DNA of 64,000 bases from an uncultured Clostridia bacterium (GCA_947627475.1 CANQWE010000002.1:11990-75989); one strand, 5' to 3'. Positions 20,489-35,504 are shown, counted from the stretch's first letter. Numbers and translations: made by a program. Notes: generated from the letters alone by a model not told the origin.

Positions 20489-22551
20489 ACATACAAGTGG
20501 CAAAGCATGCGGGCTTTTGTTTTGGCGTCCGCAGGGCCACCCAGGTGGCGGAGGATGCCCTGCGGCAGGGAAACGGCGCCATATACACCTTGGGACGGCT
20601 GATCCACAACGACGGATATATCACGCAGCTGCAGCGCAAAGGCATGGGCGAGATTGGCAGAGAGGATATCGATGAGATCTGCCGCCGGGCACAAATCGGA
20701 GAAAACATAACCGTGATTATTCGCGCCCACGGCGAAGTGCAGGAAAATCTGTCTCGTCTGCTCACCTGCGCGGCGGAGCATAAAAACCTTACCGTACTGG
20801 ACTGTACATGCCCTTATGTCACAAAAGTACGGAGGATCGCCGCAGAATACAGCGGTCCGAAAAAGCTGTTTCTTTTGATCGGCGCGGCAGACCATCCCGA
20901 GGTCCAGGGAATTATGAGCTGCTGTAGGGGCGAGGGGATGGTTTTTCCTGACGCCGCCCTTCTGGAGGAATGGCTGTACTCCCCCGACGCTGATAAATAC
21001 AGGCGTTTTCAGGTGAGCGTTGCCGCTCAGACCACGCAAAATTTGTCGGAGTGGAAAAAATGTTTGAAAATTATCAAAAAAGTATATACAAATGCTTTGA
21101 TTTTTGATACAATATGTAATGTTACGGAAGAAAGGCAGACAGAAGCCGAGCAGCTTGCCGATTCCTCTGATGCAGTTATCGTCATTGGAAGCCGGGGCAG
21201 TTCCAATACGGTCAAGCTTTATGAAATCTGCAAAAAACGCTGCCACGAGACATATCTCTGTGAAAATGCAGATTCAATCGGGGATCTGGTCATTCCCCCC
21301 CGCTGTAACACCATATCTATTACTGCCGGCGCTTCGACGCCGTTCAGTGTAATACAGGAGGTTAAACAAACAATGAGTGAGCAAATGGAAAACTTTGCTG
21401 AAATGCTCGAGCAGACCATGAAAACATTGAATCCGGGAGATATTGTCGTCGGTGTCGTTACGTCCGTGTCCCAGAACGAGATCACACTGGACCTGGGTAC
21501 AAAAACGACCGGCGTGATTGTACATGACAAGCTGACCGACGATCCGTCCGCAAAATTGGATGAAATGTTCAAAATTGGGGATGAGGTTCGTGCAAAGGTT
21601 ATCAAAATCAGCGACATTGAGGGCATTGCTACCCTTGACAAGCTGAAAGTGGATTCTGAACAAAACTGGCATGAGATTGTTGCAAAATACGAATCTGGTG
21701 AAACAGTAGAAGGAAAGATCGTAGACTGCGTAAAAGGCGGCCTGATCATTTCCATCAACTCTGTTCGGGTATTTATTCCCGCGTCCCTTTCCGGCGTTCC
21801 CAAGAATGCAGGTCCCGATGCTCTGCAGGCATTAGTAGGCACCGTGCAGAAAGTAAAAATCATCGAAATCAAAGAAGACAGAAAGCGCGCTTTTGCTTCT
21901 ATCCGCGCTGTTCTTGCCGAAGAGAGACGGGCAAAAGAAGAAGCTTTCTGGAACCAGGTAGAAGTTGGACAGATTTACGAGGGTCCTGTAAAAAGCCTGA
22001 CCAGCTATGGTGCATTCGTAGATTTGGGCGGCGTGGACGGTATGGTACATACCAGCGAGCTGTCCTGGAGACGGATTCGGCATCCTTCCGAGGTTGTTTC
22101 CCAGGGGGAAGTGATCAAAGTGTATGTAAAAGCGTTGGACCGGGAAAAAGGCAGAATTTCTCTTGGTTATAAGACAGAAGATACAGATCCCTGGTTTATC
22201 TTTAATCAGAAATACAGCGTGGGCGATACTGCCAGCGTGAAAATCGTTTCCCTGATGCCCTTCGGTGCATTTGCGGAAGTGGTACCCGGTGCGGACGGAC
22301 TGATTCATATCAGTCAGATCGCAGACCACAAGATCGAAACTCCGGCAGAGGTGCTGAAGGTTGGCGATATTGTCGACGCAAAAATCATTGCCATTGATGA
22401 TGAAAACCGGAAGATCAGCCTTTCCATGCGTGCGCTTATCGAAGAGAAAAAGGAAGCGGAAGAACAGGGCGACGCTGCAGAGCTTGCGGACAGCGCGGTG
22501 GTTTATTCTACTGACAATCCCCAGAGCTTTGCGGATGCAGACGCTGAATAA
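20485..22551 (+). CDS. ispH: bifunctional 4-hydroxy-3-methylbut-2-enyl diphosphate reductase / ribosomal protein S1
   Basis: LytB N-terminal half (AKHAGFCFGVRRA) is fused to four S1 repeats. The ATGA overlap with the plsC stop indicates translational coupling. Confidence 0.9.
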   Translation: MNIQVAKHAGFCFGVRRATQVAEDALRQGNGAIYTLGRLIHNDGYITQLQRKGMGEIGREDIDEICRRAQIGENITVIIRAHGEVQENLSRLLTCAAEHKNLTVLDCTCPYVTKVRRIAAEYSGPKKLFLLIGAADHPEVQGIMSCCRGEGMVFPDAALLEEWLYSPDADKYRRFQVSVAAQTTQNLSEWKKCLKIIKKVYTNALIFDTICNVTEERQTEAEQLADSSDAVIVIGSRGSSNTVKLYEICKKRCHETYLCENADSIGDLVIPPRCNTISITAGASTPFSVIQEVKQTMSEQMENFAEMLEQTMKTLNPGDIVVGVVTSVSQNEITLDLGTKTTGVIVHDKLTDDPSAKLDEMFKIGDEVRAKVIKISDIEGIATLDKLKVDSEQNWHEIVAKYESGETVEGKIVDCVKGGLIISINSVRVFIPASLSGVPKNAGPDALQALVGTVQKVKIIEIKEDRKRAFASIRAVLAEERRAKEEAFWNQVEVGQIYEGPVKSLTSYGAFVDLGGVDGMVHTSELSWRRIRHPSEVVSQGEVIKVYVKALDREKGRISLGYKTEDTDPWFIFNQKYSVGDTASVKIVSLMPFGAFAEVVPGADGLIHISQIADHKIETPAEVLKVGDIVDAKIIAIDDENRKISLSMRALIEEKKEAEEQGDAAELADSAVVYSTDNPQSFADADAE

Positions 22552-22649
22552 GTGCTTTTAAAAAACCTGCAGAAGTTTAAATGGATGTCCGTAAAACAAT
22601 GAATGATACTGCAAAATCACTCACTTACGCCATCTGTAAACGGGGTCGA

Positions 22650-22695
22650 TCAATAAGAAAACAAACGGTGCCTGGCTTTTCAGCTGGACACCGTT
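22650..22695 (+). terminator. rho-independent terminator
   Basis: aaacaaacggtg/caccgtttgttt stem plus a T-run. Confidence 0.7.
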
Positions 22696-22757
22696 TGTTT
22701 TTCCATTGTTAAAACAATAGATTTATTCACACTTTTCTAATATAATCAATCTATCCG

Positions 22758-22771
22758 TCAATAAATATTGA
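22758..22771. promoter_or_regulatory. candidate TetR operator tcaata-aa-tattga
   Basis: 6-2-6 inverted repeat just after a TATAAT (22741-22746), about 45 nt upstream of the tetR start. Confidence 0.3.
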
Positions 22772-22813
22772 TTACGGCACGATGTGTAATAAGAAATTGA
22801 AAGGAGGCTTCTT

Positions 22814-23378
22814 ATGTCACAAATCACAAAACGAGCTTTGGAGGCATCCCTTAAAAATATGCTTCTTCAGAAGCCGCTAGATAAAATCACCATTAACAAT
22901 ATTGCAAAGGACTGTGGTATCAACCGCATGACATTCTATTACCACTTCAAAGATATCTACGACTTAGTGGAGTGGTCCTTGTGCTGAGGATGCGGCCAAA
23001 GCGTCGGCCGGGAATAATACCTATGACACTTGGCAGCAAGGACTTTTGCAGATATTTGAGGTAGTCAAAGAAAATAAGCCCTTTATCATGAATGTGTACC
23101 GTTCCGTCAGCCGGGAACAAGTAGAGCTTTACTTATACAAGGTCACCTACGGGCTGCTTCTGAATATTATAAACGAGGAAGCCGCCGATGAACCGCTAAG
23201 CGAGGGAGATAAATTCTTCATCGCCCACTTTTATAAGTATGTCTTTGTGGGGCTGATGTTAGTCTGGATTCGAGGGGATATGAAGGAAGATCCGAAAGAG
23301 ATTGTCGATCATCTTTCGTTACTAATGCAGGGGAAATTTTCCCGGGCACTAAAAGCGTACCGCGCTGGAAAAAACTAA
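22814..23378 (+). pseudogene. TetR/AcrR (DhaS-like) regulator, frameshifted
   Basis: The HTH part MSQITKRALEASL..GINRMTFYYHFKDIYDLVEW ends at TGA 22985-22987. The C-terminal domain continues in another frame (..CAEDAAKA..QQGLLQIFEVVKENKPF..). Confidence 0.7.
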
Positions 23379-23524
23379 ACAAATTCGACAATTTGATAAA
23401 TTCCCAAGCAGAAATGCCGTTGTGATATGAGTTTTATCATAACGGCATTTCTGCTGATTTTGGAAGTTTTTGAAGGCCGCTATAATTACATAAACCCAAA
23501 GCAAATTCTATGTAGGGATTCATT

Positions 23525-25295
23525 ATGTATTAATCAAGCGGTAACTATGAAGCATTTGCACGCCCTGAAAATCCGGAAGGTATTGAGCACAAATCAGCGT
23601 ATTTGATCGGCAGCGCCTGGCATCCCTGGCGGCGGCTTGTTTCCTCGTCAGAGACGTTCGGATGCCCGGAAGCCATATTCATGTGCTGGAACGTGATTCT
23701 CATCCCGGCGGCGCTTTGGATGGCGATTAGATGACCAGTGTTGGTTATGTGATGCACGGCGGACGGGAAATGGACAATCACTTCGAGTGTTTGTGGGACC
23801 TGTTTCGTTCCATTCCATCCATCGAAACCGATGGCGTCAGCGTTTTGGACGAATACTATTGGCTGAATAAGAAAGACCCCAACAATTCTCTGTGCCGGGC
23901 GACCCAAAACCGAGGCGAAGGCGCACAGACCGGCAATAAATTTGGCCTTTCGGACAAAGGCAGTATGGAAATTATGAAGTTGTTCATGACTCCGGATGAG
24001 CAGCTGGCCAATGTGAAAATGACAGAACTGTTTGACGATGAGGTTTTTAACACCAACTTCTGGATGTATTGGCGCACCATGTTTGGTTTTAAGGACGACC
24101 AGAGTGCTCTGAAATGAAGCGGTATATGCAGCGCTACATCCACCATATCGAAGGATTGCCGGACTTCACCGCGCTGCGTTTTACGAAATACAACCAGTAC
24201 GAGTCCATGGTACTTCCCATGGTGAAATATTTGGAGGGGCACGGCGTGCAATTCCACTATGGCGCCCGGGTGATGAACGTGCTATTTAACATTCACGACG
24301 GCCAAAAACAAGCAAAGACCATTGTAGTGGAGCACGAAGGCCAGGCCGAGAATATCGGTCTGACCGAAAACGATCTGGTGTTCTACACCAACGGCAGCAA
24401 TGTGGAAAACTCCACCTACGGCAGCCAGACCAAAGCCACCGGTATGGACGGAACCATCCACGAAGGCGGCTCCTTCAGCCTTTGGCGAAAAATCGCAGCT
24501 CAGGATCCTTCCTTTGGCCGTCCCGATAAGTTCTGTACCGATCCGGAGGACAGCAACTGGGTCAGCGCCGCAGTCAATACCCTTGACGAGAGAATTCTGC
24601 CCTATATTCGGAATATCTGCAAGCGCGATCCTCTGTCCGGAAAGGTAGTCACAGGCGGTATTGTTACGGTCAAGGATTCCAGTTGGCTTCTCAGCTGGAC
24701 AAACAATCGTCATCCTAAATACCGTAACCAGCCCAAGGGGCAGGTATTGGTATGGCTTACGGAATGGTCTCTGACCGTCCCGGCGACTTTGTGAGAAAGG
24801 CCATGCGCGACTGCACCGGTATGGAAATCTGTGAAGAATGGCTTTATGACCTGGGTGTTCCCGAGGATCAGATTGAGGAGTTGGCAAGAAACAGCGCCAA
24901 TACAGTTCCGGTCATGATGCCTTTTGCCAGCGCATATTTCCAGCCCCGCGAATCTGGTGACAGACCTGATATCGTACCTGACGGTTCGGTGAACTTTGCC
25001 TTTATCGGTAATTTCGCAGAAACACCCAGAGATACGGTTTTTACCACGGAATATTCCATTCGTACCGCTATGGAGGCAGTCTACACGCTGCTAAATGTGG
25101 ATCGTGAAGTGCCGGAGGTGGGGGCAGTTATTTAATATCCGTGATTTGCTGAACGCCACCGTAGCGTTAAGAGATGGAAAGAAAATTACGAATATGGAGC
25201 TTGGGCTCAAAGAACGGGTTGCTCTAAAGGAAGTTTTGAAAAAAATCGAAGGGACAGAGATTGAAAAACTTTTGGAAGGCCACAATGTAATTTAA
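23525..25295 (+). pseudogene. ohyA: oleate hydratase (MCRA family), multiply disrupted
   Basis: [18 protein letters not shown].., GGREMDNHFECLWDLF, FWMYWRTMF, KRYMQRYIHHIEGLPDF and [17 protein letters not shown] are spread over at least 5 frames. Lesions are listed in the findings. Confidence 0.8.
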
Positions 25296-25619
25296 TTACT
25301 GAAAAAGTTGTGGAAAACATTCCCTAAATTACAAAATTCAATAGCTTCAATAAAATACCGCAATGAAAGAACAATTGGCGATAAGTGTACAGGTCCAAAT
25401 GTACGGGCTGTACAAAAAAAGCACCTTATGGTAGAAAGAATTAAATATTAAGCAGCATACTGACTTCTCTTTTCAAGGGCAGTCAGTTTTGCTTTTAACC
25501 GGATAGGTTGATGATTGAAAAGTAGAAGTATTCTCATTTATGAGTATGCGTGCTTAATCATAAGTTTATAGCTTGGTACGTTAATGCACTCTGTTTTAAG
25601 AATGGAAAAAAATATTCAG

Positions 25620-26100
25620 CTAAAGCGTTGTCAAAAGGGTACCCATGACATTGAGGGCGTTATGCCGTAAGATGGTGTCGGCTTAAAATATACTTGGGAT
25701 GTATACTGAAAGCCCCCGTCCCTGTAGAGCTGCGGCTCTACAGGGACGGGGGCTTTTTCTTTTGCAGCACGCATAGCAGATAGAACAAGGCTGATGTTCT
25801 GTCCCTGTTCTGCAGGCAACTATGCTGTTGTCGAATAAATTTCTGACGATAGACAAAGACAATGTTCCCTGTACTGTTTTGATTTATAAATATCTGTAAC
25901 CCATCTTTGGTTTGATCTGTGTGCCTTGAAATCTCACACTTGATGGCATTTGTAAAACTGTATAGAGGGTTTAAAAACATTCCCCAAAATTTTTTGAAAG
26001 AGAGCTCCTTTTCCTACGCTTACTCGCCTCATTCCGGCAGAAATAAGAATCAGTCATGGTGGACAGAGGAATACAAGGAAACCAGAAGCTATTTATATGA
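25620..26100 (-). mobile_element. IS3-family transposase (OrfB) remnant A
   Basis: By-eye translation gives ..DFKAHRSNQRWVTDI.., TVQGTLSLSIVRNLFDNSIVACRTGTEH, ..GGFQYTSQVYFKPTPSYGITPSMS. It is frameshifted and truncated at both ends. Confidence 0.6.
25709..25764 (+). terminator. 22-bp perfect-stem hairpin plus T-run inside IS remnant A
   Basis: aaagcccccgtccctgtagagc-tgcg-gctctacagggacgggggcttt followed by ttcttttg. Confidence 0.5.
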
Positions 26101-26147
26101 AACGAAAACCTCGCCTCCCGATAGTATTCTGCTATATCACATAAAGT

Positions 26148-27155
26148 TTATCGAACAAATTCCTGACTACGATTTTCTAGGAAAGTAAAGTCGAATAGTG
26201 TATTCATATCCGGCATGGTTTGGAAGATTCCCATCTGAAAGAAATAATTGCAGAGATTACGGGTAAACATGACATATTCTTCTTCAATATCCCAGACCCA
26301 CTGATAGTTATCCCGTTCCTGTTGGATTCCCGCCGCATCAAGTCCAAATTCCTTCGCCGAGGACAGACCGAAATCATCCAAAGGAGTTACCATTTCCATA
26401 ACCTGATAGTTGGCATTGACAATTTCCTGAATCCAGTCCCTTTTTTCGTTGATTTTATCTTCCGTTGTGACGAGAACAAGATTTCCATAGCCCAGATCGC
26501 TGGCATAGGGATAGCTCAGGATTTTTCCGTATCCCTCCATAAAAGCAGTACCGGCCAGCGCCGCATCGCCGCAGTAAGCGTCAATGGTTCCGGACTGCAG
26601 CGCCTCGTTCAGCTCTGATGGCTCCATTTCCTTCCAAGTAATAGAGCCGGCGTCTATTTTTCGGTTATACAGATCTGCTCGCAGCTGTGCGTATTCCATG
26701 GAACCATCGGTATATCCAACGACTTTTCCAGCCAGTTTTTCAATGGAGGTTATGTTCTGTTCCGTTGCCGTCACAACGGCGGAACCCTTTTGATAAAAAT
26801 TGCACAGAATTTTTACTTTATGTCCATCTAGCTGCGCCTGCAGTACAGACGGCAATGCCGACACACAGACGTCCACCTCCCCGGCTGTCAGCGCCTCAAT
26901 GGGCTGCGTGGATTTAGAATATTCCTTTACTTCACAGGAATATCCGGTACTTATATGCTTTGGATACTCCCGAACCGGCAGGGTAGGGAAAGACGCATAG
27001 ATGCCAACACTTACTGGATCCAGGGCCTGAGACTCGGAGCTGTGACCATCCTGGACAGACACGTTATTGCCGCAGCCGCAAGCGGCTACGATCCAGAAAG
27101 CAACGGAAAAAGCTACAGCAAGAAACCTTATATACATGTGTTTCATATTTATCAT
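26148..27155 (-). CDS. ABC-type substrate-binding lipoprotein, NMT1/SsuA/TauA-like (orphan)
   Basis: Lipobox VAACG, with periplasmic-binding fold similarity as I judge it. No permease or ATPase gene is adjacent. Confidence 0.65.
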   Translation of the reverse strand: MINMKHMYIRFLAVAFSVAFWIVAACGCGNNVSVQDGHSSESQALDPVSVGIYASFPTLPVREYPKHISTGYSCEVKEYSKSTQPIEALTAGEVDVCVSALPSVLQAQLDGHKVKILCNFYQKGSAVVTATEQNITSIEKLAGKVVGYTDGSMEYAQLRADLYNRKIDAGSITWKEMEPSELNEALQSGTIDAYCGDAALAGTAFMEGYGKILSYPYASDLGYGNLVLVTTEDKINEKRDWIQEIVNANYQVMEMVTPLDDFGLSSAKEFGLDAAGIQQERDNYQWVWDIEEEYVMFTRNLCNYFFQMGIFQTMPDMNTLFDFTFLENRSQEFVR

Positions 27156-27325
27156 TTCATCCTTTCAGTATCTCATATTTCTACCTGTAGTAAAGAATAG
27201 CATATTTCCATTTGCATTGGAAGTGATTTTTCATAAATTTAACTTACGTTTTACTTAAATTAGATAGTTGCTATTTGAACAATCTACTAAAATAAAGCCG
27301 TACTAATATAAAGGAGGATATGTAA

Positions 27326-30300
27326 ATGAAATTAAAATCCAAAAAAGTAGGCGGGAAAGCACTGGCTGCATGTCTGGCAGCAGTCCAACTGTTGACGCTT
27401 GCCGTACCTCTAAGCGCAGCAGGAGGCTCGGAAGTCCCCAGCAAAGCTGTCGCGGGAAAAAGCAATGTGGATCCGGGCTTTACCTACGGAAGCAAAGGTC
27501 GTGACTATGTTACTGGGCAGGACTACTATTATTTGGAAAATCAGTACGTCAAAACCTTAATTGGTCCGACAAAGGCGGCCAATGACCAACAGGGTCCTAT
27601 GTCTAACGGCGCGATTATGGATGCTGTGACACAGGAAGCCAAGCGTGAAAACCTGGACTGGACACAGTTTTTTCTGGCTTCAAAGATGAGCGGATCTTGG
27701 GATATGGGCAAAGGTGTATTGGACCTGAATGAGTTAGAGGTCAAGGGGAACACCATAGTCGGAAAAGGTGTTTCGGAAGCCACACCGAATATTCAAGGCG
27801 AAGTTACCTATTCTATTGTGGAGAATACGCCCCTTATTCAGATGCAGGTGAAACTGACCAACAATGGTTCAGAGGATTACAATGGATATTTTGAATATCA
27901 GATTGATCCGGATGAAAGCGGTGAACAAAACACTTACGTACCGGGTGTGGGCTGGACCATGGGCAATATCTATACGGTTCTAACAAACCACGAGTGGACG
28001 GGGAACTACATCTTTGAAGGTTCTGCCAGCAAATATACCGGAAACACCGCCCATGCAATCCTGTGGGATGAAGCAGATACAGTTCCCAGCGGGCTGCTGA
28101 ATGACGGATACATTTTCGGGATCTGGTATGACGCCTCCTTGAAAGCTGGCGAGAGCAAAACGCTGACATTTTACCACTTGCCGCACCAGCCGGGTGGAGT
28201 GAGCGAGCCGTATGCCGAAGCCGCTTTCTGGGCTAAGGTTGTCAGCGGCGAAATTGATATTTCCAATTACGGTACGATCAACGGCTCTGTTACCGACCGG
28301 TACGGTAATCCCGTGAAAAATGTGGATATTACTTGCCAGTATGCAGTGGGCGAACATGCAGGGGAAAGTGCAGGGACGACCGTCACGGATGTGAATGGCA
28401 ACTATTCCCTTCGCGTAGAGAAGGGGCCGTATACTCTGACCGCTTCTATACCCGGGTATGAGCAGAGTTCGCATTCAGTGGATCTGAATAACCAGGAAAA
28501 TCCCCGTGCGGATATTATTTTAGAATCCATAAAAGGAACCCGCATTCTGGACACTACCAGCATGCAATCCTTTGGCGGAATAGTGGAAGGTAAACCCGGA
28601 GACTATACGCTGGAAAATGAAGCCTTTACCATGCTGGTTGCGAAGATCACAAAGGACGGTCAACTGAAAGATTCCTCTGCGGGTCGTATTTTAGACATCG
28701 CCGCTAACGGTAAATCGGACGTCATGGACTTTATATTTACCAGTTGGATTTCAGATGTTAAGCCGCATCAGGAAACGCAGGACAACGTAGTACCTGGCGA
28801 TTCCTGGCAACAGTTGGATACCAGGTTTGATAATCTGGAAGTAGTATCCCAGTCTAAAAGTAAAATTGTTCTGAAAGCCACCGGTGTCTACCATCATGAT
28901 CTGGCAAACGCCCCTGAAAGCAAGGATGGCGAAATCGAGCAGATCATCACCTTAGAGAGCGGTAAGCCCTATGCTGAGTTGGAAACCACCATTCGCAATA
29001 CCAGCGGTCAGGAGCTGCAGGTATATGTCGGCGACATTTTTGATGTGGATGGGAACGCACAAAAGTCCTATGCGCCTGGGGTTGGCGATGTAACGGCACC
29101 TTTTAATTCGCCGATCGATGAGAAACCGGTCCAGCCGTGGTTTGCACAGTATGCCACTAGTGATCAGGAGGTTTATTCGTTCCTGTACGAAGATGATTTT
29201 GATTTCCGGGTATTCGGCAGTACCAACTGGCTGATGGGTTATGCTCCGGTAAAGCTGGCAGCAGACGAAACCTTCACATATAGCCGGCAGCTCATCGTTC
29301 TGGATACCGAAGGCTATACCCAGCAGCCGGAGGCCATGACTGCCTACTATAACGCCTATAAATACGGCATGGAAACCCGTATGGATGTGTATGATGGCAA
29401 GGTACAGAAGGGAGATGTTTTCCCGGTCAAGGTCACAGTGGAAAATTCAGCCGAGAAACCGATCCGGAATGTGACGGCATCATTGAAGCTTCCTTATCAG
29501 ATGTACTGTGTCGGTGAATCGGAAATCACTATTCCAGAAATTCCGGCTGGCGGAACCGAAACCGTGGAATTCTCTGTTCTGGCGCTGGAAGGCGGTCGTG
29601 GGTTGCTAAAATCGGAGGTAAGGACAGCAGATGACGTAGCAATGACTTTCTCAGAGGCGTTGTCAATCTCCGGACAGGGGTACTATGCCGGTGACAACCA
29701 TACCCACTCCATCTATAGTGATGGAAAGGGAACCATCCGTGAAAATGTAGACTCTGCTTATGAGGATAAGCTGCTTAACTGGCTGTACAGCACCGACCAC
29801 AACAAGATTAGCCAGTACAATGATACGGTGACAGAAACTAACCGTCTCACCGGTAACTTTGTCAACATCACCGGTACAGAAATTACTTCTTCCAATAAAG
29901 GACATGCCTTAGCTTACGGTGTTGGTTCCTTTATCCCGGAGTATCGAATTGGGAAGGAAGTCAATGGTAAAGTTTGGACTTGGCAGGACACAATTGATCA
30001 GGTAAATAGCAATGGCGGCGTTCTCTATGTGGCGCACCCCAACTATCCGGGGCTAGAATTTTCCGATCCTTATGGCATCCGTGAGTACACAGGTATCGAA
30101 GTCTGGAACGGTTTCAATCACGCCATCGATCCGGACAAGAACATCAATACATTTGCCTTTGATTACTGGGATAATGTCAACCGCCGCGGTGAACAGAAAT
30201 ACTTTGGAATCGCCAACTCGGACGGTCACAACTCTACGAAGATGGGGGATCCGTATATCAAGACCGAAATGGATAACCTTTCATATGATAACATCCAAGA

Positions 30301-32152
30301 TATTTTGGCAAATGGTAGCTTCTACGGCTCCAATGGTCCAGAACTCCGCTATGATATTGAAGGCGTGGGCATGGGTGAAACGCTTACCATCAAGGAAAGC
30401 GGAAATGTCGATTTCAACATCACCGCTTTCGACCAGAACTATGATCTGGTGAACGTCAAACTCATTAAAAACACTATTACCGGCAGTGCAGAAAAGGGCG
30501 AAGCAGAAGTTGTCTTCAATAAAGACCTGAAGGGTCAGGGGCTCAGCGAGTTCAAGACCACACTGTCTCTGCCCGTTAAGGCGGGAGAATTTTACCGCGT
30601 TGAGGTAACCAGTGAACAGGGAACCACCGGTAACGGAGGAAATGGAGAAGGACAGGGACTTGGCTTTGCTTTCTCAAATCCTATCTGGATCAGCGATGGG
30701 GAAAAATCCAATGCCACTGACATCAAGAAAATTACCTACGCTGGCGGACAGGTTATCGAAACCGTTGGTGATAACATGGTAATTACGGTGGAGGATGTTT
30801 TCTCGGTCGACAAACTGAATGTGGAGGTTTCGGATGAAGCCGCCGTCCGCACCGAAGTTATTGATGCAGTGGATGATGAACTGGATACGGCTGCAGCTGT
30901 AAAAATTACGGTGACGGCAGAAGATGGCACGCAGGATGTGGAAACCGTCTTCCTGACTAAAGGAAAAGTTGAAGAAACTCCTGCTGAAATTATATCTTTC
31001 ACCACGGCTTTTGTGAAGACAGAAGAGGGAAAGCAGCCGCAGATGCCGGAAACGGTGGAGGCTACATATGATAATGGCTCAATTAAATCTGTGGCTGTCG
31101 ATTGGGATGAAGTCACAGAGGATATGGTTGCCGAACCTGGTATTTTCAAGGTGGAAGGTACGGTAACCGGAACCACTATCAAGGCGGAAGCATTTGTTCA
31201 GGTCGTACCTGGCAAGGATGTAGAAAATGTCCGTGGTCTGTTGCAGAAAACCTACAAGTTTGCGCAGAATTTGAGTTCTGATGGGGTGACCGACAGTGCT
31301 AAGGTGTTCTTTGAAAAGGCCAAAGAGCAGGCGAAGGCCGCGTTGGAGAACCCGAGCGCAACCCAAGAGGAATTGTCTTCTGCATGGGATACTCTGCTGG
31401 AAGGTATCTGGGGTTTGGGGCTGTACCAGCCAGATAAAGCAACTCTGGGTTTGCTGATTGAGAAGGCAGAGAGCATGGTTGCTCAGGAAGATAAATATGT
31501 AAAGAGAAACTGGCAGAAGCTGGTAGATTCTTTGGCCCAGGCAAAAACTGTTATGGATGATGGGGATGCCATGGAAGACGAGGTGTCCTTCGCCACAGAG
31601 GAGCTGCTGAATTCTATCCATCTTCAGTTGTACAAGGCGGACAAAGCCATTCTTGAAAGCCTGATCCAAAAAGCGGAAGGTTTGGATCTGACCAGCTATA
31701 CCCAGGAAAGCGTTGCCGTGCTGAAGTCGGCTCTGTTAAAGGCCAATGCCGTTTATGCTGACGTTACCCTGAGCATAAATGATCAGGAGAAAGTGGACGA
31801 AGCCGCCGACAGCCTGAATGAGGCAATGAACGGCTTAGTTAAACTGTCAGATGTATCTGGTGGAAACAACACTGGAAATAACCAGGACAGCAACACTGGA
31901 AATAACCAGGACAGCAACTCTGGAAACAACCAGGACAACAACTCTGGAAACGATCAAGGCAAAGAGGATGGAGCAGGCGATAATCAGGTCAAGCCATCGG
32001 GTGACAGCAATGTGGATGGCAAAGATCATAATGACATTTCCAATCCGCAGACCGGGGAAAGCCGGACGGGTATGTTAGCGGCGCTCTTGGCTGGTATTTC
32101 GTCTTTGGTGTTGCTTCTTGGCAGCAGAGTTTGGAAAAGAAAGACAAAATAA
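27326..32152 (+). CDS. 1,608-aa wall-anchored multidomain protein with PHP/CehA-McbA-type metallohydrolase domain
   Basis: AAAGGAGG RBS and a signal peptide. Also a CarboxypepD_reg-like domain, DNHTHSIYSDG..VAHPNYPG..NSDGHN (PHP), Ig-like and helical repeats, and an N/Q/D stalk. The protein ends in NPQTG, a hydrophobic helix and RKTK. Confidence 0.85.
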   Translation: MKLKSKKVGGKALAACLAAVQLLTLAVPLSAAGGSEVPSKAVAGKSNVDPGFTYGSKGRDYVTGQDYYYLENQYVKTLIGPTKAANDQQGPMSNGAIMDAVTQEAKRENLDWTQFFLASKMSGSWDMGKGVLDLNELEVKGNTIVGKGVSEATPNIQGEVTYSIVENTPLIQMQVKLTNNGSEDYNGYFEYQIDPDESGEQNTYVPGVGWTMGNIYTVLTNHEWTGNYIFEGSASKYTGNTAHAILWDEADTVPSGLLNDGYIFGIWYDASLKAGESKTLTFYHLPHQPGGVSEPYAEAAFWAKVVSGEIDISNYGTINGSVTDRYGNPVKNVDITCQYAVGEHAGESAGTTVTDVNGNYSLRVEKGPYTLTASIPGYEQSSHSVDLNNQENPRADIILESIKGTRILDTTSMQSFGGIVEGKPGDYTLENEAFTMLVAKITKDGQLKDSSAGRILDIAANGKSDVMDFIFTSWISDVKPHQETQDNVVPGDSWQQLDTRFDNLEVVSQSKSKIVLKATGVYHHDLANAPESKDGEIEQIITLESGKPYAELETTIRNTSGQELQVYVGDIFDVDGNAQKSYAPGVGDVTAPFNSPIDEKPVQPWFAQYATSDQEVYSFLYEDDFDFRVFGSTNWLMGYAPVKLAADETFTYSRQLIVLDTEGYTQQPEAMTAYYNAYKYGMETRMDVYDGKVQKGDVFPVKVTVENSAEKPIRNVTASLKLPYQMYCVGESEITIPEIPAGGTETVEFSVLALEGGRGLLKSEVRTADDVAMTFSEALSISGQGYYAGDNHTHSIYSDGKGTIRENVDSAYEDKLLNWLYSTDHNKISQYNDTVTETNRLTGNFVNITGTEITSSNKGHALAYGVGSFIPEYRIGKEVNGKVWTWQDTIDQVNSNGGVLYVAHPNYPGLEFSDPYGIREYTGIEVWNGFNHAIDPDKNINTFAFDYWDNVNRRGEQKYFGIANSDGHNSTKMGDPYIKTEMDNLSYDNIQDILANGSFYGSNGPELRYDIEGVGMGETLTIKESGNVDFNITAFDQNYDLVNVKLIKNTITGSAEKGEAEVVFNKDLKGQGLSEFKTTLSLPVKAGEFYRVEVTSEQGTTGNGGNGEGQGLGFAFSNPIWISDGEKSNATDIKKITYAGGQVIETVGDNMVITVEDVFSVDKLNVEVSDEAAVRTEVIDAVDDELDTAAAVKITVTAEDGTQDVETVFLTKGKVEETPAEIISFTTAFVKTEEGKQPQMPETVEATYDNGSIKSVAVDWDEVTEDMVAEPGIFKVEGTVTGTTIKAEAFVQVVPGKDVENVRGLLQKTYKFAQNLSSDGVTDSAKVFFEKAKEQAKAALENPSATQEELSSAWDTLLEGIWGLGLYQPDKATLGLLIEKAESMVAQEDKYVKRNWQKLVDSLAQAKTVMDDGDAMEDEVSFATEELLNSIHLQLYKADKAILESLIQKAEGLDLTSYTQESVAVLKSALLKANAVYADVTLSINDQEKVDEAADSLNEAMNGLVKLSDVSGGNNTGNNQDSNTGNNQDSNSGNNQDNNSGNDQGKEDGAGDNQVKPSGDSNVDGKDHNDISNPQTGESRTGMLAALLAGISSLVLLLGSRVWKRKTK
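31868..31957 (+). repeat. in-frame 24-nt tandem repeat (NTGNNQDS x ~3.7)
   Basis: aacactggaaataaccaggacagc repeated at 31868, 31892, 31916 and 31940, with increasing divergence. Confidence 0.85.
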
Positions 32153-32186
32153 TAACGTCCTATATCAAAGCTTTCAAAAGTAAGGT

Positions 32187-32229
32187 AGCACGCCCTGTCA
32201 ACCGTATGGTTGACAGAGCGTGCTTTTTC
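32187..32229 (+). terminator. rho-independent terminator of the 1,608-aa gene
   Basis: 17-bp stem agcacgccctgtcaacc/ggttgacagagcgtgct (1 mismatch) followed by ttttt. Confidence 0.8.
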
Positions 32230-32382
32230 AGGTACCTAAAGAGGAAACACCGAAAATGGAGGAAAACACAATGAACAAACGCACCGCCAACAGATTACAG
32301 AAATGAAAAGCCAGGCCATCGGAGTCGAGGTTAGACCTATGTCAATACTTTGGATAAAAAGGCTGGAAGTTTGTGCCACTTT

Positions 32383-32480
32383 TTAAATTTCATCCACGTT
32401 TTGCTGCGGAGTCATATAATCAATGGCACTGTGAATTTTTTCGGTTATACTATGATTCTATATACTCAAAGATAGCCCTG
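32383..32480 (-). mobile_element. IS3-family transposase C-terminal fragment C
   Basis: By-eye translation gives AIFEYIES*YNRK(K)IHSAIDYMTPQQNVDEI*, which carries one stop and one frameshift in an A-run. Confidence 0.45.
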
Positions 32481-32536
32481 CTCCCTTATAATCCTGTTAA
32501 GTGCGACGATGGACTTCCTCGTTAGGAGGGATTTTT

Positions 32537-33650
32537 ATGCCCAAAAGTTACAAACCTATCATGGAATATGAAAAAGAAATATTAGAATAGAAAGCATAAT
32601 ATTACGTCCAATGGATGAACAATTAGGGTTTATATATAAGCAACAGCACAATTTCATTCCGCGTCACAATGCCAATCAGCGTAAGCTAAGCAGAAATAGC
32701 GTTAAAACGCAAAGGCAGACCGTCCAAAAACTATGTTGTATCGGAACAAAATAAGGCAGCCGAGCGAAATAGATCCTTGCTCACAAAGAAGAAAAGATAA
32801 AATTATTAAAAAGGAAAATGCACTGATGCGGGATTTTCGCTTGCTTACCAAAAAGAAGTAAGATCAAACATAAAATAATAGTGATCTGTTGTCATAGAAA
32901 CAAATATGGGTAAGAAAAATGTGCAGATTGTTCTTGGTATCAACAAGCGAATATTATGACTTTGGCAAGCAAATGGATCCACCTGCAAAAGATTTGCCGT
33001 TGACGAAAAAGATACAGGAATGCCTAAAAAGTGCGGAAAGACCTACAGATACCGCAGAGTACATATATGGTTAGAGCGTAACGGCATACATCAGAATAGC
33101 AAAAAATGCTTCGTGTTATGCAGAAATACGGTAGAAATACAATTTTTGTCACCAGTCAGAAGAAAGCAATAGGACAATTATGGAGAATATCTGCAACATT
33201 ATCCTAAATTACTGAACAGAGATTTGAAGGACGCAGACCAAACCAAAAGTGGGGTACAGATATTTTTGTATCAAAACAGCACGGGGAACATTGTATTTGT
33301 CTATCATCAGAGATTTATTTGGCAACAGCATAGTTGCCTATAGAACAGGGATAGAACATTAGTTTTGCTCTATCTGCTATGCGTGAAAAAGCTACCCGTT
33401 ACCAGAAATTGAACGCACGCAAGCGCAAATCTGACAGTATAAACCGGTACAAAATGCTGGCGCGGAAAATTTCCGCCCAAATTTACCGGAAATGCAGCCA
33501 TCATATTTTCCTGTACAGCGACTTTCTGGAAAGTATTGTACAGGGGCGAAAACTATGACCGAAGGCGAGGGTAAAGGCTTCTCCTGTACCATATTGCAAA
33601 GAGCCAAAGCGCAGGATTTTTTGTGAAAACGATCCTACTTGTTTTGCAAT
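32537..33650 (+). mobile_element. IS3-family element remnant B (orfA + orfB, heavily decayed)
   Basis: RBS aggaggg plus MPKSYKPIMEYEKEILE*; MCRLFLVSTSEYYDF..; ..RPNQKWGTDI..; TARGTLYLSIIRDLFGNSIVAYRTGIEH. Many stops and frameshifts. Confidence 0.6.
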
Positions 33651-33779
33651 GTTGTAAGTATGCATTGGATCATTATAAAAATGAATCCTCGAAAGAGGAC
33701 AAATAGCATTTAATAGAAAAGGCCCCTTGTGGGCGGTTTCCAAGGAACCGCCCACAAGGGGCAGTCAGCATTAACTGAC

Positions 33780-34425
33780 TGAGGGATTGCTATACTATAG
33801 GATTGTAGAAAAAGGAAAGGACATACTTACAATCTCTCCGAGTTTTGCTGCGCAAAATCCACCTCCCTTTACACAAGGGAGGCTTTTATTTTAGAAATAA
33901 CAGAATACCCCCACCGGCGGCAGGGTCGCCACCACCCCCTGGCAGGTCGTTCTGCGACCTGCAGCACTGGGGAGGCTTTTTAGTAGTTCCTCGAACAATA
34001 TGTTTTACAGAATCTTTATTTTAACAGTTGAACCAAGTGGCTACAGATAATAATGTTTCTTTCAACTACGCTGTCTCCTCTTTAACGCCCCCCCAAAGAA
34101 AACAGATTCATTGTAGGTTATTTCCTTTTATGGGGTTTTAATACAAGATTTTTTGGGGGAGATATTATCCCTCTGGAAAAACTGGTGAAAGAGGAAACGG
34201 CGTAACTTCAGTCACGCCGCCCCTTGAAAGCACATTTTTTCAACCTTTTTCAATTTTTACTGTTGTTTTACAACCACCCAGCATTAAACCAGCAGCTTTT
34301 TTAAGTAGCTCTTGCTACGCTCGTTGCCCTCCTCCTTGTAAACATTACAATGGAACTAATGCGTTAAGCCCCCCTATGCTGTAGGGGGGTGTCCCGGCAG
34401 GCCGGGACGAAAGGGTTGGTCATAC
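33780..34425. other. ORF-free, hairpin-studded spacer at the right edge of the island
   Basis: No ORF of 60 aa or more. Contains GC-rich hairpins in an AT-rich background. Confidence 0.4.
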
Positions 34426-34430
34426 AACAT

Positions 34431-35504
34431 TTACCGCTCATCCTCTATCAGAAGCTGCGCAAATCCTTCTGTATAGCAGGCTTCTCCGGATTCGTCAATC
34501 CAGGCTGCCTCCACACCGTCCAGACTCTCGATCAGCGCCCTGCCCTGGTCATAGGGCATATTGAATACCGCCGTAGACAGGGCATCTGCCATACCTGCAT
34601 GGCTGCACAGGATAGAGACAGAAACAAAAGAATTTTCCGGCTGCAGCGTCTGCGGATGGATAATATGGTGATACCGTACGCCATCCACCATATAATACCG
34701 CTGATACGATCCGCTGGTCACCAGGGATAAATCCGTTAGTGCAACCCGACAGAAGGTGGCGTCCTGCGCCTCAAGATCCGGATTTTGAATACCTGCGGTC
34801 CAGGGAGTGCCATCCCCTTTTGTGCCAATGGTGCGCACATTGCCTCCCACGCTGAACGCCAAATGGTCCCACCCCATTTCCCGGGCAGCTGCAGCAGCCA
34901 TTTCTGTAGCATATCCTTTGGCAATGGAACCTACGTCCAGCTGCATCTGGGGATCCGGCAAATACACGGTTCCCCCGTCCCGGTCAATTACAACAGAATC
35001 TATATCCATATGCTGTGCTGCAGCTTCCAGCTCAGCCCGGTCCGGCAGCGACGCATGCTCCGGATCCTCTATACCCGCTTCCCTATATGTATGCCATATG
35101 GAAAGCACGCTGCCCATGGCTATGTTGGTCATTCCCTGGGTGAGGGTGTACATCTCCCGGCTGTACTCCAGCATATCTATAATACGGGCGTCCACCGCTA
35201 CAGGCTCCAGGCCCGCGTGATCATTTACCGTTTTTAAATTGTTAATCCCATCATAATCATGATAAATATCATATAGCTGGTGATACTCCTCCAGCAGCTG
35301 CAGCAGCCAGTCCGCCTTTGTTTCAAATGCCTGCTCCGACGTATCAAAGCCGGTGATCACCGTTACCGTATCAAACAAATCAAAGGAAGTGCGGGAATAG
35401 CGATTCAACACAGCGTCCTCCTGGGCAGGGCGGCTGCATCCACCGAAAACAGGCAGCAGAAGGATCAGAGCGGCAAGCTGGGCCATGTATTTTCTTATTT
35501 GCAT
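34431..35504 (-). CDS. apbE: FAD:protein FMN transferase (ApbE family) lipoprotein
   Basis: Lipobox FGGCS and ApbE-like core (AMGSV, DVGSIAKGYA, SGSYQRY). Start at MQIRKY. Confidence 0.85.
   Translation of the reverse strand: MQIRKYMAQLAALILLLPVFGGCSRPAQEDAVLNRYSRTSFDLFDTVTVITGFDTSEQAFETKADWLLQLLEEYHQLYDIYHDYDGINNLKTVNDHAGLEPVAVDARIIDMLEYSREMYTLTQGMTNIAMGSVLSIWHTYREAGIEDPEHASLPDRAELEAAAQHMDIDSVVIDRDGGTVYLPDPQMQLDVGSIAKGYATEMAAAAAREMGWDHLAFSVGGNVRTIGTKGDGTPWTAGIQNPDLEAQDATFCRVALTDLSLVTSGSYQRYYMVDGVRYHHIIHPQTLQPENSFVSVSILCSHAGMADALSTAVFNMPYDQGRALIESLDGVEAAWIDESGEACYTEGFAQLLIEDER

Follow-up and report, generated by a model that had tools for sequence, protein, structure and literature searches.

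A probable wreck of a mosaic mobile element, with one gene pair kept by selection, in the terminator between ispH/rpsA and apbE of an uncultured gut Clostridia species

The DNA considered here is a stretch of 64,000 nucleotides, hereafter the window, from a 2.13-Mb metagenome-assembled genome (MAG) of an uncultured gut Clostridia species, an assembly of 111 contigs that is 96% complete (GCA_947627475.1, contig C2, CANQWE010000002.1:11990-75989). Between ispH/rpsA and the convergent gene apbE the window carries an island of 11.7 kb, extending from position 22573 to about 34285. Within it a TetR-oleate hydratase operon, three insertion sequences (IS) of the IS3 family and an element with a large serine recombinase are present only as broken remnants, and two adjacent genes, encoding a substrate-binding lipoprotein and a 1,608-amino-acid surface protein, are intact. 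The original prediction, made from the sequence alone, had placed an island of decaying genes at 22700-34430. The island exists, but its left boundary must be moved 127 bp to the left and its right boundary lies about 145 bp before the apbE stop codon. The serine recombinase and its mobilization backbone were not among the contents then listed; the remnants of mobile elements could be recognised only when intact relatives were used as queries. The features of the locus are as follows.

22560-22572, plus strand: left arm of the ancestral terminator (AAAAAACCTGCAG); homology to sister species ends at 22572.
22573-22813, plus strand: left end segment of the island, comprising a replacement terminator hairpin and the region upstream of the TetR gene; no sister-species homology.
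22814-23378, plus strand: TetR-family regulator pseudogene; PF00440 (N-terminal) and PF14278 (C-terminal) lie in different frames, with one frameshift near 22980.
23525-25295, plus strand: pseudogene of an MCRA-family oleate hydratase, in which alignment to intact homologues shows four frameshifts and two in-frame stops.
25397-25935, minus strand: IS3 remnant A, which has lost its 5' half and retains the 3' end together with OrfB residues from about 120 to 284 (tblastn, with the intact IS3 element of contig C13 as query).
26148-27155, minus strand: intact gene for an NMT1/SsuA-like substrate-binding lipoprotein of 335 amino acids (PF09084 and TIGR01728 matches).
27326-32152, plus strand: intact gene for the 1,608-amino-acid surface protein, with signal peptide, CarboxypepD_reg, CehA/McbA, Big_4 and FIVAR domains, a stalk encoded by 24-nt repeats and a C-terminal anchor.
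32331-32532, minus strand: IS3 remnant C, the last ~45 codons of another IS3 OrfB, with stops and a frameshift (tblastn; 78% nucleotide identity to the 3' end of an IS3 orfB in G278).
32523-33417, plus strand: IS3 remnant B, which keeps its left terminal repeat, a decayed orfA and about residues 19-186 of OrfB but has lost the 3' part.
33442-33635, plus strand: frameshifted C-terminal remnant of a DUF3847 gene (tblastn, combined E 2e-9).
33707-33990, no strand assigned: palindromic repeat units of a type scattered through the genomes of the order (~60 nt, 82-100% identical elsewhere; no Rfam match).
34149-34285, plus strand: 3' remnant (18 codons) of a gene for a large serine recombinase of the DUF4368 type, with the terminator hairpin of that gene and the outermost ~80 nt of the element.
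34289-34302, plus strand: probable right arm of the ancestral terminator (CCAGCAGCTTTTTT; in sister species CCTGCAGGTTTTTT, two mismatches).

That the region is an insertion, as had been proposed, is borne out by synteny. In three sister species (G001/L093, L094 and G009/L097), in which IspH/RpsA is 92-93% identical, ispH/rpsA is followed after only 110-125 bp by the stop codon of the convergent apbE, and the same three genes lie upstream and the same three downstream of the junction; the region is missing from all three at this otherwise conserved locus, as expected of a horizontally acquired island. (MAGs with 77-79% IspH/RpsA identity carry the label Candidatus Avispirillum, as do the more distant members of the host genus.) The intergenic DNA of the sister species forms a two-way intrinsic terminator, AAAAAACCTGCAGG-ATAn-CCTGCAGGTTTTTTT, with a folding energy of -22.2 kcal/mol (z = -6.9). 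Homology to these species is lost after 22572 and regained at the apbE stop, and what is left of the hairpin on the left side no longer folds (-4.9 kcal/mol, z -0.12). The copy of the right arm follows directly upon the point at which island homology to L131, a second copy of much of the island described below, comes to an end; by our own arithmetic such a match would be expected by chance at ~5e-6 per position, or ~1e-3 for the 150-bp gap. Both junctions carry AA at the break, and the target hairpin has dyad symmetry. The intact hairpin is kept by six relatives, including an outgroup clade (L095, L096, which is the same as G002, and L098) in which different genes lie 3' of ispH/rpsA and the hairpin is unchanged. 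A tree built from 4.7 kb of flanking genes makes the host genome sister to the three island-free species, with L098 outside, and presence or absence of the island alone leaves the event unpolarised; it is the hairpin, ancestral and split only in the host species, that polarises it.

Within that outgroup clade, L098 (CANPFW010000002.1) and L096/G002 have apbE, along with the lipoprotein gene that adjoins it, ~7 kb upstream of ispH/rpsA, and CobW-like GTPase genes together with palindromic repeats follow the conserved terminator. The different placement of apbE in this next clade implies that the ispH/rpsA-apbE junction is itself a recent rearrangement point.

A second hairpin, at 22657-22704 (-27.7 kcal/mol, z -4.6), lies 100 nt past the ispH/rpsA stop codon. 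It had been read as the terminator of ispH/rpsA, and this has to be corrected: the native hairpin is the one split at 22572, and the structure at 22657-22704 belongs to the island and stands behind ispH/rpsA only now. When 22560-22800 was compared with 300 genomes of the order, the only matches were of ~40 nt, to 22711-22754 upstream of the TetR gene, and a search for the left end among metagenome loci gave no match.

The right end of the island is fixed to the base, at ~34285, by the point where L131 homology stops; in the sub-lineage of the host the element ends in ...ACAACCACCCAGCATT. The segment 34149-34285 is 80-81% identical over 90 nt to the 3' ends of recombinase genes in G128, G254 and G132, the last of which encodes a protein with Resolvase, Recombinase, Zn_ribbon and DUF4368 domains. 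A tblastn search of the window with a full-length recombinase recovered the last 18 residues only, and no relaxase remnant was found in the window. In an intact relative (L252) the order is DUF3847 gene, MobA/MobL relaxase gene, recombinase gene and element end, and the 3.3 kb expected for relaxase and recombinase has given way here to about 0.5 kb of repeats. With the recombinase cut to 18 codons and the relaxase gone, the recombinase element would be a remnant unable to move. Recombinases with the DUF4368 domain belong to the 'multi-targeting' clade, which includes TndX-like enzymes (Durrant et al. 2022, PMC10083194). A CCGTAAAACA motif considered as the second element end in L131 was dropped, its orientation being wrong.

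Metagenome contigs were scanned with a pattern for the conserved element end, which gave more than 120 hits, from which 67 unique right junctions were analysed. A run of at least four T residues occurs 12-52 nt beyond the conserved TTTTAC in 55 of the 67, compared with 17.6% of random 40-mers (p = 2e-30), and the last 14 nt of the element pair with the flank in 54. Elements of the DUF4368 family would therefore tend to sit in, or to complete, intrinsic terminators, which fits the split hairpin found here.

At the left of the island, the TetR gene and the oleate hydratase gene together represent a dead operon. Intact TetR homologues of 187 amino acids are 82-88% identical, and the predicted frameshift is seen in the two domains, which fall into different frames. 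At least six lesions had been claimed for the hydratase gene and exactly six are present: the stop codons TAA at 23531-33 and TAG at 23728-30, and frameshifts near 23615, 24112, 24757 and 25119. The oleate hydratase domain (PF06100 / NF010584) is covered only piecewise over three frames, with no full-length open frame. From the start of the TetR gene to the end of the hydratase gene there is 77.7% nucleotide identity to an intact chromosomal operon in L134, with genes for 187 and 591 amino acids; the sole other copy of the operon in the genus, in G042, aligns at 65-71%. No second copy of the hydratase gene was found in the host genome, and as far as the 96%-complete assembly shows, the host species would be without a working oleate hydratase.

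The reality of these lesions was examined in three further independent assemblies of the same species (L130, L132 and L133), from different samples. Members of the 90%-identity cluster of the large protein occur on other contigs as well. L130, in which the locus lies on a 2.47-Mb contig, is 99.88-99.96% identical over 17326-42152, without gaps except for three extra 24-nt stalk repeats, and carries both hydratase stop codons. L132 and L133, from two further samples, are 99.3% identical and have the island in the identical position; with the host genome they have in common the TetR frameshift and four hydratase lesions, and they are without the stop at codon 3 and the frameshift near 24.11 kb, so that the hydratase fragment there is 354 amino acids long. 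Five of the seven lesions in the two genes are thus common to all four assemblies, and a homopolymer run of at least five nucleotides adjoins only one of the five frameshifts. The frameshifts, for which sequencing error had been named as the point to exclude, are evidently not of that origin. The decay is genuine and, because the two youngest lesions are limited to one strain lineage, stepwise: five lesions predate the split between strains and two postdate it.

The other end of the island shows decay of a different form. As had been predicted, there is no open reading frame (ORF) of at least 85 codons with a start codon between 32153 and 34430, the longest being 84 amino acids. Nowhere else in the 2.13-Mb genome are stop-to-stop ORFs of at least 90 amino acids absent over so long a distance (2,218 bp here, 1,281 bp for the next), and the rest of the window has no ORF-free gap above 640 bp. 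Coverage of the island by ORFs of at least 200 amino acids is 0.61, which is in the first percentile of genome windows. A Pfam search of 20 short stop-to-stop ORFs from the decayed parts found no domains. In Rfam (22000-35000, E up to 0.1) there were three sub-threshold matches, all on a hairpin at 25.7 kb, and no riboswitch or known RNA was found in the ORF-free stretch. A megablast search of the whole island against plasmid and phage collections gave zero matches, and the island is accordingly not a known plasmid or phage segment.

All three of the IS3-type fragments that had been noticed could be located. Remnant C abuts the left end of remnant B, and this left end is intact: matches in other genomes begin at 32523, at contig ends. 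Compared with L131, remnant B has suffered a 407-nt deletion. Remnants A (minus strand) and B (plus strand) bracket the two intact genes as a 155-nt inverted repeat, 86% identical and 7.3 kb apart; in both, the transposase gene is truncated as well as broken, a deletion has removed the outer end of B, and no direct repeat flanking the IS3 pair was found at the locus. A single inversion through one IS copy, considered as the source of both A and B, was rejected because it predicts opposite halves on the two sides; two IS copies with later deletions are favoured. Elsewhere in the host genome, contig C13 (22275-23407) holds one intact IS3-family element with a 94-amino-acid orfA product and a 284-amino-acid orfB product, their genes overlapping as usual, and these proteins are only 35-44% identical to remnants A and B. 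Remnant A also contains a perfect GC-rich hairpin with a 22-bp stem (25709-25756), followed by a T-run, inside the aligned transposase coding sequence; a small palindromic unit may have inserted there later.

The two genes between the IS remnants, both of which are intact as originally described, are divergent across 170 bp, and no transporter genes lie near the binding-protein gene. The CehA/McbA domain (NF038032), at residues 785-1122 of the large protein, scores 133.2 bits against a curated cut-off of 80. No homologue of the 1,608-amino-acid gene is present in 31 other genomes of the genus. At homologous loci (64-94% identity) an NMT1-type gene always stands divergent beside the large gene, and the pair was found in at least six other, unrelated neighbourhoods, with DNA homology stopping at the two genes. 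The number of 24-nt stalk repeats varies among strains, giving proteins of 1600-1656 amino acids (L130 has three more copies), and across assemblies lengths from 1570 to 1656 amino acids are seen. Judging from the domains, the large protein would most likely be a hydrolase acting outside the cell, with the neighbouring lipoprotein binding the product that it releases.

Between two strains otherwise identical over 11.6 kb, eight of 17 differences fall within 500 bp (30917-31414) in the C-terminal third of the large gene, three of them changing an amino acid and five silent; a stalk-repeat difference occupies 31867-31961. A recombination tract at the first site and slippage-driven variation of stalk length at the second are possible. 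In one lineage (L052-L055) the binding-protein gene adjoins a gene for an ECF-transporter component (PF12822), which hints that the orphan lipoprotein feeds an ECF-type or some other distant transporter.

Much of the island has a counterpart in L131, an 808-kb NCBI contig from a distant host (45% amino acid identity for ThrRS, 65% for RNase Y). Nucleotide identity to L131 is 94% for the gene pair and 82-86% for remnant A and for the DNA that follows the large gene. Directly beside its binding-protein gene, L131 also has, in inverted orientation, counterparts of remnant B, of the DUF3847 fragment and of the recombinase end, with 83-86% identity. Since the decayed DNA is shared together with the pair, the two must have been linked before the copies in L131 and in the host parted, and the segment between the inverted IS copies was flipped in one of the lineages. 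In L131 and in L056, which come from different hosts, no more than 2-3 kb separates the pair from the RNase Y gene, but the pair is on opposite sides of that gene in the two; this may reflect a shared older insertion region, or an inversion.

Comparison with L131 also allows selection to be gauged. The two genes show synonymous divergence (dS) of 0.147 and 0.164 and nonsynonymous divergence (dN) of 0.033-0.034, so that dN/dS is 0.20-0.23; the Jukes-Cantor divergence of the decayed flanks is 0.15-0.20. As flank divergence equals the dS of the pair and dN is far lower, the flanks drift at the synonymous rate and both genes are constrained. Over all comparisons dN/dS is 0.13-0.20 for the binding-protein gene and 0.08-0.23 for the large gene, and against more distant homologues it is 0.08-0.15 for the pair. 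These values uphold the suggestion that the intact genes are the selected cargo: the pair appears to be kept intact by purifying selection and would be the sole functional content of the island. Host genes differ from those of the sister species by dS of 0.6-1.06, against 0.15 for the module in L131, which implies that the two module copies split long after speciation. Taken with the presence of the island in all four strains, the host-gene values place its acquisition after speciation and before the divergence of the strains.

It is tempting to go one step further and to regard the pair as a self-contained two-gene module that moves among families of gut Clostridia with no transporter genes of its own, and which purifying selection keeps while its vehicles rot. 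The enzyme would free a small molecule from a host or dietary polymer, and the lipoprotein would pass it to a transporter encoded elsewhere, possibly of the ECF type. This picture is offered as a tentative one, and we would sooner expect it to need revision than to stand in every part.

For the island as a whole, the explanation that we hold to be probable is that a mosaic element acquired by horizontal transfer, now wrecked and immobile, makes up 22573 to about 34285, and that a selected gene pair has been retained from it. Besides its absence from the sister species, the region has the contents expected of such an island, namely three IS3 remnants, a DUF3847 remnant, the 3' end of a serine recombinase gene, and a split hairpin as insertion site. 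The element arrived after the split from the three nearest sister species and before the present strains diverged, and its target was the loop region of the intrinsic terminator that serves the convergent genes ispH/rpsA and apbE in both directions. Its vehicle was presumably a Tn4451/Tn5397-like integrative mobilizable element encoding a DUF3847 protein, a MobA/MobL relaxase and, at the right end, a 'multi-targeting' recombinase of the DUF4368 type. Insertion would have destroyed the host terminator, to be replaced behind ispH/rpsA by the hairpin at the left end of the island. Subsequently the relaxase gene and nearly the whole recombinase gene would have been deleted, and the two inverted IS3 copies bracketing the cargo, together with a third IS3, truncated. 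The TetR-hydratase operon would have gathered its seven lesions, the last two within the species, and the divergent lipoprotein and CehA/McbA genes would have stayed open under purifying selection.

Several observations weigh against this explanation. Neither the 300 genomes of the order nor the metagenome loci contain a recognisable partner for the left end of the island; an intact relative possessing both ends was not found for the sub-lineage to which the element belongs; and a terminal inverted repeat between left and right ends amounts to a shared GTAAAACAA at matching offsets (local alignment p = 0.065, not significant). The right arm of the split hairpin differs at two of its 14 positions. 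The junctions of the element family do not fold more stably than random 45-mers of the same loci, so that the preference for terminators is read from the T-run and the geometry of pairing only. The recombinase and relaxase genes are missing both here and in L131, which would require either movement of the module after their loss or parallel deletions, and the TetR-hydratase operon is missing from the L131 copy and so may have arrived separately. Base composition, finally, is not distinctive on a genome-wide scale. The island was originally described as AT-richer, and this holds locally, GC being 45.4% at 22700-34430, 6-7 points below the left (51.5%) and right (52.6%) flanks; against the genome (mean 48.5%) the island is no outlier, and 14% of same-size windows have equal or lower GC (z = -1.0). 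The tetranucleotide distance of the island (z = 1.24) is equalled by 8.7% of windows, and the right flank is nearly as deviant. Being AT-richer than its flanks and about one standard deviation from the genome mean, the island offers in its composition a weak argument for foreign origin. Its AT-richness comes mostly from the decayed parts, which have the lowest GC (38.7-43.5%; 38.7% in IS remnant A and 40.8% in the ORF-free stretch), the 1,608-amino-acid gene being at the genome average with 48.4%. A megablast search of the whole island against plasmid and phage collections gave zero matches, and the island is accordingly not a known plasmid or phage segment.

Other histories of the locus can be envisaged. 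The most credible of them, although on balance we doubt it, is that two or more separate insertions accumulated on the spot, one bringing in the TetR-hydratase genes and another the recombinase element with the IS copies and the pair. It would account for L131 having everything from remnant A to the recombinase end without TetR-hydratase, which elsewhere is an ordinary chromosomal two-gene unit, and it would sit well with the lack of a significant inverted repeat between left and right ends and with a GC of 50% in the hydratase gene, where its neighbours have 39-44%. Yet sister-species homology breaks at just two points, which are the halves of one hairpin, so that a second insertion must have landed inside the first or at its edge, and no second set of element ends or target duplications is seen. 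We consider it unlikely that an IS3 composite transposon moved the pair and that the serine-recombinase element was merely where it landed. The inverted remnants A and B do bracket the pair with their left ends facing inward, and the bracketed segment is in the opposite orientation in L131 relative to the recombinase end, just as recombination between inverted IS copies predicts; against this, the pair occurs in six other neighbourhoods without an adjacent IS3, homology there stopping at the two genes, the two IS copies are just 86% alike, and deletion of the outer end of B has left no target-site duplication that could be checked.

It is very improbable that the island was already present in the common ancestor and then disappeared from the sister species, whether through precise excision or through deletion. 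With the host genome sister to the three island-free species, presence and absence cost one event either way, and a serine recombinase with a directionality factor can restore a target site exactly; but the hairpin is intact in the outgroup clade, so that a gain followed by a precise loss would be needed, and the module parted from its L131 copy (dS 0.15) far more recently, by a factor of four to six, than the host did from the sisters (dS 0.6-1.06). We regard as negligible in practice the chance that errors of sequencing, assembly or binning produced the broken genes, or that recoding allows these genes to be read through. The genome is indeed a 111-contig metagenome assembly, but the island is found, together with five of the seven lesions, in all four assemblies, which come from different samples and one of which has it on the 2.47-Mb contig; two of the lesions arose by substitution, giving TAA and TAG, the contexts of the frameshifts differ, with just one beside a run of at least five, and ORF-free gaps elsewhere in the window stay within 640 bp.

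The preferred explanation, a horizontally acquired mosaic element now in ruins, has parallels among known systems. Tn4451/Tn4453, with TnpX, and Tn5397, with TndX, are elements of Clostridia that use a large serine recombinase, and as in the family of the island element the recombinase gene lies at the very end and reads outward; the position of the relaxase gene just upstream in the intact relative L252, the many insertion sites and the accessory cargo are further points of likeness. The island differs in having its recombinase gene down to 18 codons and its relaxase gene gone. The TnpZ protein of Tn4451 is of the MobV type, whereas intact relatives of the island element have MobA/MobL. A further difference is the target, here the loop of an intrinsic terminator; such targeting was not found described by Durrant et al. 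(PMC10083194). Composite transposons of the Tn10/Tn5 type likewise have two inverted copies of IS of the same family around their cargo, here a two-gene one that is seen in both orientations (in the host and in L131), but the IS copies of the island are truncated and 86% alike, a third remnant lies nested against one copy, and the pair elsewhere is mostly without IS. Decaying genomic (fitness) islands, too, are absent from sister genomes at a conserved site and contain mobility remnants, pseudogene passengers and one selected module. Unlike the usual examples, the present island is barely atypical in composition, has a terminator hairpin in place of a tRNA gene as its site, and yields the order of its lesions through strain comparison. 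The enzymes that give the CehA/McbA family its name are small carbamate hydrolases. The large protein matches the model for this family, which has a PHP-like fold, above its curated cut-off, and departs from the namesakes in being a wall-anchored multidomain protein of 1,608 amino acids, always found beside an orphan NMT1-type lipoprotein.

The island is well resolved but ordinary in kind. Its interest is that a single 11.7-kb insert permits neutral decay to be measured alongside purifying selection, and that the order of lesions in a dying gene can be read from a comparison of strains. It would also add one more case, a gutted one, of DUF4368 elements landing in terminator hairpins, a way of landing that spares coding sequence; here the element would itself supply the replacement terminator behind the essential ispH/rpsA. 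The lipoprotein and CehA/McbA pair is flagged by these results as a widely shared, selected module of gut Clostridia.

Of the repeats that occupy the place of the lost relaxase and recombinase genes, a ~60-nt unit (…CTCCGAGTTTTGCTGCGCAAAATCCACCTCCCTTTACACAAGGGAGGC…) and a partner that bears a complementary CTGAGGGATTG / CAATCCCTC motif were noticed at 33827-33887 and 33707-33790. Unit and partner recur at 82-100% identity in about 25 of 300 genomes, in many families of the order, and a tandem array with 227-bp spacing is present in G163 (C19:32153-33571). Together they look like a family of repeated extragenic palindromes.

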